A DNA stretch of 64,000 nt, taken from the NCBI GenBank assembly GCA_964016885.1, contig OZ024740.1, positions 200,632,001-200,696,000 on the forward strand. Reading direction: 5' to 3'. The notes below the pieces were generated by a model. That model was not told where the DNA came from. It ran no database searches and was given only the letters and a program-made list of their open reading frames with translations. How positions within the stretch are numbered: the stretch's first letter is position 1; the number at the start of each line of letters is the position of its first letter. The position numbers and the translations under genes were made by a program. Origin of the DNA: Eledone cirrhosa. Lineage: Eukaryota. Positions 37,102 to 37,772 of this stretch are shown piece by piece.

Positions 37102-37772
37102 GAATTTTGTTTATCGTGAACTCGTGCGCCGATTTTTCGATACTCGATTATTCTACTATATTTAGCTCTAGACCTAGCTATTGACCAGTTAATTTTATTG
37201 TTCATTTTTTGTCGATTCTATTAAATGATGAATAGCTCCTGTTTATTTTAACATGTCTATTGAGCACTCTTATTCGATATGTGTATTTCCACATTTTCCC
37301 GAATATTTTTTGCGGATATAGAGGTTATCTCCCTTGCTGAATTCCATGTGCGTTTCTTCAGCCTGGGTTATCCCTTTTCATTCGTTCGGACAAAAGCTCG
37401 TTGAGGAAGTAAATTGCGGTCCGCTGGCTTCTAGAAGTCTTATATATTTTTATGTGACCTGATAGAGGGCAGTTTAAGGATTTACAGAAACCCAAGAAGC
37501 TAGATTTACCATCTTTCTAGCGGGTCCGGGTATGCTTTTTACATTCATTTGATTTATTGATTTATTGATATTTTTTCTGAGTGTCCCGAATCTTCCAGAT
37601 CGCAATTTTTCGGTCGTATGGTTGATTATAGACATGTTCTATATGTGACGGTATTTTAACGATAGTTATAGCTCTGATTTATCTGAATTATTGAGCCCTC
37701 TGTCGCCCATTTTGAATTTTGTTTATCGTGAACTCGTGCGCCGATTTTTCGATACTCGATTATTCTACTATA
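37102..37772 (+). mobile_element. 612-nt non-coding terminally redundant unit in (TA)n
   Basis: Identical 59-bp direct repeat at 37102-37160 and 37714-37772; homologous to 27164-27811(-). Confidence 0.8.

Follow-up and report, generated by a model that had tools for sequence, protein, structure and literature searches.

Non-coding units in the window

The stretch of the Eledone cirrhosa genome analysed here (64,000 nt of contig OZ024740.1), referred to as the window, carries three members of a family of non-coding units, one from each of subfamilies A, B and E, together with a decayed copy of a Penelope-like element (PLE) family, PLE-1 (Table 1). Copies A and B had been described in the original prediction as collinear homologues on opposite strands, each in (TA)n, and this was borne out by a local alignment score of 126, compared with 23 ± 2.6 (maximum 36) for 200 shuffles. 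The two copies are aligned by blastn in segments of 176 nt and 111 nt, each at 73% identity, and the shared sequence blocks that had been reported are present in the alignment. The periods of 612 nt (A) and 623 nt (B) were also recovered, with redundancy at 59 of 59 positions in A and 24 of 26 in B, and both copies lie within (TA)n. As had been stated, no reading frame is common to A and B, the longest stop-to-stop frames being 46-63 aa and differing between the copies. The subfamily E member had been overlooked.

Table 1. Positions of the units, their predicted hammerheads and the PLE-1 copy in the window
Feature	Position	Strand	Details
Subfamily A insertion (copy A)	37102-37772	+	59-nt 5'-truncated upstream unit followed by a complete 612-nt unit (37161-37772); lies in (TA)n
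Terminal redundancy, copy A	37102-37160	+	3' end of the truncated upstream unit; 59/59 identity with 37714-37772
Conserved hairpin directly past the unit junction	37176-37237	+	Both sides of pairs change between subfamilies
RTYGAGYMCTYT motif, second copy	37259-37270	+	Same motif precedes ATG in PLE-1 and PLE-7
RTYGAGYMCTYT motif closing a GCTC..GAGC hairpin	37690-37701	+	~70 nt ahead of the fixed 3' end
Predicted type I hammerhead, copy A	37396-37531	+	Descriptor, fold and alignment
Subfamily B insertion (copy B)	27164-27811	-	25-nt redundancy and one 623-nt unit, in (TA)n
Predicted type I hammerhead, copy B	27401-27537	-	Core UUGACAA 27532-27526 (U3-A8); GAAAC 27444-27440; GUC 27408-27406
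Third member, subfamily E	27943-28352	+	5'-truncated, ends in (TA)n
Predicted hammerhead, subfamily E	within 27943-28352	+	Core UUGAUAA 28010-28016; GAAAG, not GAAAC, 28093-28097; GUC 28131-28133
Decayed autonomous Hydra-type PLE-1 copy	2611-5712	-	Candidate partner family; no physical link to the units

The window also contains five copies, at 85-90% identity and including one tandem pair, of a ~190-bp repeat with a B-box-like stretch (8844-9230, 45993-46187, 49519-49704 and 58956-59142), which we take to be SINE-like; no tRNA was called by ARAGORN. A further repeat at 33990-35218, made up of 219-bp inverted repeats of 95% identity with 34-bp tandem repeats and 30-bp repeats inside, is foldback- or MITE-like. 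At 45340-45680, near-perfect inverted arms of ~70 bp and a 12-bp tandem motif face (TA)n with a short insert. Broken ORFs at 16142-17733(-), 30572-31081(-), 38306-38797(-) and 62216-63955(-) presumably resemble hAT transposase, RTE-type RT and endonuclease, and Tx1/L1-type RT.

Copy number, ends and arrays

The family consists of at least seven subfamilies with a unit of ~600-650 nt in the alignment (measured unit length 598-652 nt), and copies of A are 98% identical to one another and those of B 95%, with 60% identity when A is compared with B. An initial examination of the 3.0-Gb genome returned 2582 (A), 2982 (B), 4463 (E), 2053 (F) and 3802 (D) candidates, though these sets may overlap and are not copy numbers. 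In 60 evenly spaced 10-kb stretches, 3 unit pieces were found, making up 1048 of 599,800 bases, which extrapolates to a genome total of about 15,000 pieces (Poisson range roughly 3,000-44,000). The family is present in thousands of copies.

One shared 3' end site was found in 142 of 151 arrays from subfamilies A, B, D, E and F, most of which were retrieved with queries containing the 3' end, and (TA)n comes next in 131 of the 142. The same 3' end is present in 26 of 27 arrays that were chosen on an internal segment. This fixed end is located 220-246 nt downstream of the cut site of the hammerhead predicted below, and the 5' ends of the arrays are scattered. A 5' end falls at -10 to +20 of the cut site in 12 of 91 multi-segment arrays (2 of these rows coming from the A2 query), that is, in 12 of the 31 that reach that far. 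As a sign of a pile-up of 5' ends this is not decisive, since 5 of 14 fall in a bin farther upstream and AT content is 73-90% immediately past the cut.

The longest head-to-tail arrays comprise 9.7 units. In subfamily A, 27 of 46 arrays have two segments and 4 have more than two, and at least two hammerheads are spanned by 32 of 68 subfamily A arrays in a set enriched for long arrays, with the window copies having one hammerhead each. Units are less diverged within the same array than between different arrays (1.2 vs 2.3% in A, 3.5 vs 5.7% in B, 3.4 vs 5.5% in D, 5.3 vs 6.3% in E and 5.3 vs 7.5% in F), and non-majority variants are 3.5-5 times more often common to units within one array than across arrays, which is what repeated copying of a single molecule or lineage would produce. 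Higher-order patterns were seen in the long arrays L340, L342 and L345, and point to later DNA-level reshuffling.

Long arrays with signs of internal reshuffling would also be produced by a DNA-level mobile element or a dispersed satellite that multiplies by rolling-circle replication or unequal crossing-over with no RNA step. However, the 3' end is fixed with random 5' truncation, the (TA)n targets are those of RT-encoding PLEs too, and a conserved ribozyme fold is found on one strand only, making an origin of this kind highly implausible.

In two further arrays of 3.4-3.5 units (L303 and L304), units with intact and with broken hammerheads alternate, a pattern that could come from a dimeric template or from later duplication. 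A dimer circle was considered as their source, but the case is not decisive: the deletion is limited to that locus (2 exact matches), and other arrays have undergone DNA-level reshuffling.

A predicted variant hammerhead

The unit had been read as unassigned because it was thought to lack a complete hammerhead ribozyme, and here the original prediction was mistaken. A descriptor of the type I hammerhead is matched by both A and B, whose cores lie at 37401(+) and 27532(-), respectively, and an unconstrained fold of 37394-37533 (A) is a three-way junction. The unit therefore fits the description of a non-LTR retrozyme. The window gave no matches to Rfam at the gathering threshold, and when the unit was searched by E-value, only chance matches were obtained (E 3-7), none of them to a ribozyme. 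A regular expression requiring C3 and G8 likewise found no hammerhead in the unit. Any search that insists on C3-G8 together with a short stem II overlooks entire families of high copy number.

Along the unit, stem I comes first, followed by UUGA-N-(A/G)-A and by stem II, which holds an insert of ~70 nt; next come GAAAC and a long stem III, and GUC then leads into the other strand of stem I. In copy A, stem I is formed by 37396-37400 with 37527-37531, and the core, UUGAGGA (37401-37407), includes a U3·G8 wobble. It is followed by stem II from 37409 to 37485, with the ~70-nt insert, GAAAC (37487-37491), the long stem III and GUC (37524-37526), placing the predicted cut after 37526.

A relaxed form of the descriptor fits 162 of 232 distinct copies, leaving 70 outside it, and fits none of 200 shuffled copies and none of the 232 opposite strands, and a stricter form fits 91 of 163 copies. 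When 12 diverged copies were aligned, each of the 13 core columns was conserved in 11 or more of them, compared with 27 of the 125 columns elsewhere; at N7, all four bases occur. The conservation of the catalytic positions together with a free N7 suggests that cleavage may be under selection. For a structure written by hand, 85.9% of cells pair and both sides change in 10 of 21 pairs, with slid controls at 24-55%, in a covariation test whose shuffle control ignores relatedness. The unconstrained folds of A, E, y, F, A2 and one B copy are three-way junctions. For 7 of 11 copies, the window copies B and E among them, folding to minimum energy gives something other than the full hammerhead. When A is folded as a circle, the hammerhead is buried.

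The U3·G8 wobble occurs in subfamilies A and F, and U3-A8 in B, D and E. At 10.1·11.1, every one of the 12 aligned copies has A·A or C·A. Both of these features could lower the activity of a hammerhead. One sub-lineage of A has G8A in 7 of 7 hammerheads from 3 arrays, which converts U3·G8 to U3-A8. The pair 10.1-11.1 is the most conserved after 15.1-16.1 (PMC3088659). A U3-A8 pair is known in PLE hammerheads, for example in Schistosoma (PMC4209133), and is reported to be active in vitro (PMC3088659).

An apparent enrichment of dead hammerheads in long arrays (18 of 88, compared with 0 of 33 in a short-array set chosen for high identity) was examined and discounted, as 9 of the 18 are G8A, a change that restores a pair, and the other 9 of 88 fit neutral mutation.

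Predicted hammerheads are not confined to this family. In 600 kb of sequence (loci L101-L160), 37 matches to a hammerhead descriptor were found, compared with 6 in three shuffles, and 8 of the 37 have U3-A8. The number of such predicted motifs genome-wide would be on the order of 100,000, from many families. A second, short hammerhead family with a CUGAUGA core and a 19-nt stem II region is present in the window at 41351(-) and 1636-1760(+), and accounts for 6 of the 37 matches in the random sample.

Candidate Penelope-like partners

Four PLE families (PLE-1, -3, -5 and -7) were found to have long open ORFs of 709 aa (PLE-1), 711 aa, 718 aa and 813 aa, the last three at 32-47% identity, and a fifth, PLE-2, is known from fragments alone. 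PLE-1 has intact 709-aa ORFs, partial tandems, ends in (TA)n and a repeat of ~3.26 kb, and makes up 11,445 of the 599,800 sampled bases. The CxCx5C linker is present in all four ORF-bearing families, DKT is present in PLE-1, -3 and -7, and the C-terminal region is GIY-YIG-like. As the linker and DKT characterise the Hydra clade (Craig et al. 2021, bioRxiv 10.1101/2021.04.23.441226), the families match the Hydra type, a placement made by motifs; the PLE-1 protein had no match among Pfam and PDB sequences. Hammerheads are found in the UTRs of the PLEs, with U3-A8 in PLE-2, and for each of PLE-1, -3, -5 and -7 two main end sites were located, both of which fall in (TA)n and lie downstream of the hammerhead.

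For PLE-3, ~70 of 150 matches listed are 100% identical over a 120-aa query, many of them in 830-aa open frames, and tandem copies lie ~6.65 kb apart (L245-L258 and L306). This family looks to have been active very recently. In the window, the PLE-1 copy has a hammerhead-like motif whose core reads CAGAAGA (U4A) and whose stem II has U·U at its base, and is adjoined by inverted and direct pLTR pieces (1832-2177). Pieces of the PLE-2-type 3' end are located on the reverse strand at 9997-10198 and 60555-60790 in (TA)n; they include part of a hammerhead and the 12-nt motif described below, with short fold-back inversions.

It had been predicted that the unit is non-autonomous and is copied by a PLE RT from a circular or template-jumped RNA, and a non-autonomous element copied by such an RT from a circular or more-than-unit RNA is supported by the fixed 3' ends in (TA)n, the variable 5' truncation, the multimers and the intact PLEs with the same pattern of insertion. 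Adjacency of the unit to an RT ORF, which had been proposed as a check, was examined in the five PLE families, and no unit was found to be directly joined to an ORF; the unit is not the pLTR of any of these five.

The unit could instead be the pLTR or UTR, or a simple internal deletion, of a further autonomous PLE family. The pLTRs of PLEs carry type I hammerheads, including ones with U3-A8 (PMC4209133; PLE-2 here), retrozymes are homologous to pLTRs (Li et al. 2026, bioRxiv 10.64898/2026.07.22.740005), and the five families examined are part of an implied total of about ten or more in the genome. However, what lies next to a unit, in arrays of up to 9.7 units, is the unit itself and not an ORF, and a profile of the unit gave no significant match to seven full PLE regions (best E 0.16). 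The unit is present in 42 ORF-start loci only as separate insertions, and an ORF piece is found 700 nt or less from the unit in just 11 of 213 unit loci. In 3 of these 11 the two are on opposite strands, in 6 they are parted by (TA)n or unrelated DNA, and 2 represent one place with (TA)n between. Derivation of this kind is therefore improbable.

A candidate motif shared by units and some PLEs

The 12-nt motif RTYGAGYMCTYT, which was picked after inspection of unit A and PLE-1, occurs 237 times in 1.32 Mb of overlapping loci, and nearly all of these occurrences are in the unit, PLE-1, PLE-2 or one further repeat. The motif stands ~70 nt before the end of units A and D, and the corresponding gap is 33 nt for PLE-1 and 43 nt for PLE-2; it was also seen near the ends of PLE-7. 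Unit A includes the motif twice, and two copies were seen in none of 20,000 shuffles. The strict motif was not found at the PLE-3 or PLE-5 junctions, and B, E and F have a loose form only. A GCTC-containing stretch is present within a few bases past the end in PLE-1, -5 and -7 and in unit A. When the whole junctions of the unit and PLE-1 were aligned, the similarity was not significant, with 33, 100 and 7 of 300 shuffles scoring as high.

The further small repeat with the same 12-nt motif abuts (TA)n (L213, L128 and L157; about 2390-2545 in the window), and is possibly another non-autonomous PLE passenger.

We tentatively propose that the units belong to a class of long retrozymes that standard searches for hammerheads have overlooked, and that the pair of GAGC hairpin motifs, in common with Hydra-clade PLEs, may be the PLE recognition signal that fixes an internal start for reverse transcription.

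Proposed route of spread

The unit is probably a non-coding retrozyme with a predicted variant hammerhead, which would spread by way of a circle copied by a Hydra-type PLE into (TA)n. A locus carrying two hammerheads would be transcribed, cleavage after GUC would release a monomer, and a host ligase would close the monomer into a circle. The PLE protein would then bind near the GAGC hairpin motifs and nick (TA)n, and cDNA synthesis would begin internally, from a fixed TA-like site that lies 220-246 nt downstream of where the RNA is cut. The cDNA would run round the circle and stop at random, giving one to several units of which the 5' unit is truncated. Circles of animal retrozymes arise via cleavage, with closure probably by a ligase of the RtcB type (PMC7229834).

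From a linear monomer with both ends cut, no more than 220-246 nt could be copied, yet insertions of 1.x to 9.7 units are frequent in the sample; presumably, therefore, the template was a circle or an uncut multimer, or the RT jumped between templates. If either of the last two applies, the same PLE would be parasitised by a unit whose hammerhead is slow, structural or protein-binding, the RT copying uncleaved multimeric RNA or jumping, and a stable circle would not be needed. In keeping with this, a PLE from anole initiates internally at fixed sites with unprocessed RNA as its main substrate, hammerhead mutants insert, and cleavage is unnecessary for insertion in vitro (PMC11167929). Among nine Xenopus retrozymes tested, eight were without cleavage and one cleaved (Li et al. 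2026). The non-canonical U3·G8 and 10.1·11.1 positions also agree with a slow or structural hammerhead, the autonomous PLEs here form the same partial tandems, and the higher-order patterns in the arrays fit multimeric templates. However, at loci that mostly hold 1.x units, read-through RNA containing the junction and more than one upstream unit should be rare, and is what a circle supplies, and the catalytic positions are conserved while N7 is free. Copying of uncleaved RNA is thus considered unlikely, though clearly less so than a pLTR origin, and it is on these two grounds, the prevalence of loci with just 1.x units and the conservation of the catalytic core, that the circle is favoured. 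As the predicted ligation point lies within the unit, the joined sequence is present in every genomic copy, and the back-splice-like junction reads that had been suggested as a check cannot tell a circle from the genome.

If the circular route is correct, a non-coding circle would be a ready-made template for site-preferring insertion by a PLE, and the family would provide direct evidence of how retrozymes borrow the PLE enzyme. Mobilisation of animal retrozymes by PLEs is a standing hypothesis, based on co-occurrence and pLTR similarity. With young non-coding units, PLEs with open ORFs, a mapped 3' end and a candidate shared motif, this link is testable in vitro.

Comparison with known systems

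The derivation of non-LTR retrozymes from PLEs, as non-autonomous elements, has already been published (PMC7229834; Li et al. 2026). As the retrozyme, the U3-A8 hammerhead and the PLE partner are all on record, the finding extends a known system, and what is new is the U3-variant core, the long inserts, the length and the mapped PLE-type ends. No description of this family was found in an incomplete literature search on retrozymes, hammerheads and cephalopod or octopus Penelope elements, which included the accessible part of PMC8967140.

Judged by its sequence, the unit is predicted to work like a non-LTR retrozyme, and every membership feature that sequence can test was found. Like the retrozymes described in PMC7229834 and by Li et al. 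(2026), it is non-coding and AT-rich, is repeated head to tail with a single type I hammerhead in each unit, is present in thousands of copies and co-occurs with hammerhead-bearing PLEs. The original claim that it is longer than typical retrozymes holds against the 170-400 nt of the invertebrates covered in PMC7229834, with 600-650 nt here, and this length falls within the 51-972 bp range of Li et al. (2026). The unit further differs from the retrozymes in these sources in its U3-A8 or U3·G8 core, the ~70 nt inserted in stem II and a stable stem III of 30-90 nt, compared with a helix of 1-2 bp. It differs also in that most of its copies are 1.x-mers, dispersed in (TA)n and having a single fixed 3' end that is internal.

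The hammerhead resembles those of PLE pLTRs as presented in PMC4209133 in its U3-A8 covariation (seen in Schistosoma Cercyon), short helix I, longer helix II and extra nucleotide after A9, and it shares a large helix III with the PLEs of fungi and protists. It differs from them in belonging to an ORF-less, self-tandem unit, in an extra A before GAAA, so that standard numbering gives A·A or C·A at 10.1·11.1, and in the U3·G8 of two subfamilies.

The unit has the same end pattern as the PLE families here, which are like those of the Hydra clade (Craig et al. 2021), but is ORF-less and shows overall no significant resemblance to five families of this type; the ~3.26-kb repeat of PLE-1 slightly exceeds the '<3 kb' given for Hydra in the same source. 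Naiad PLEs share the preference for (TA)n and the partial tandems, whereas in the account of Craig et al. (2021) they have an N-terminal endonuclease and are without a hammerhead, so that by description they are set apart from the hammerhead-bearing unit.
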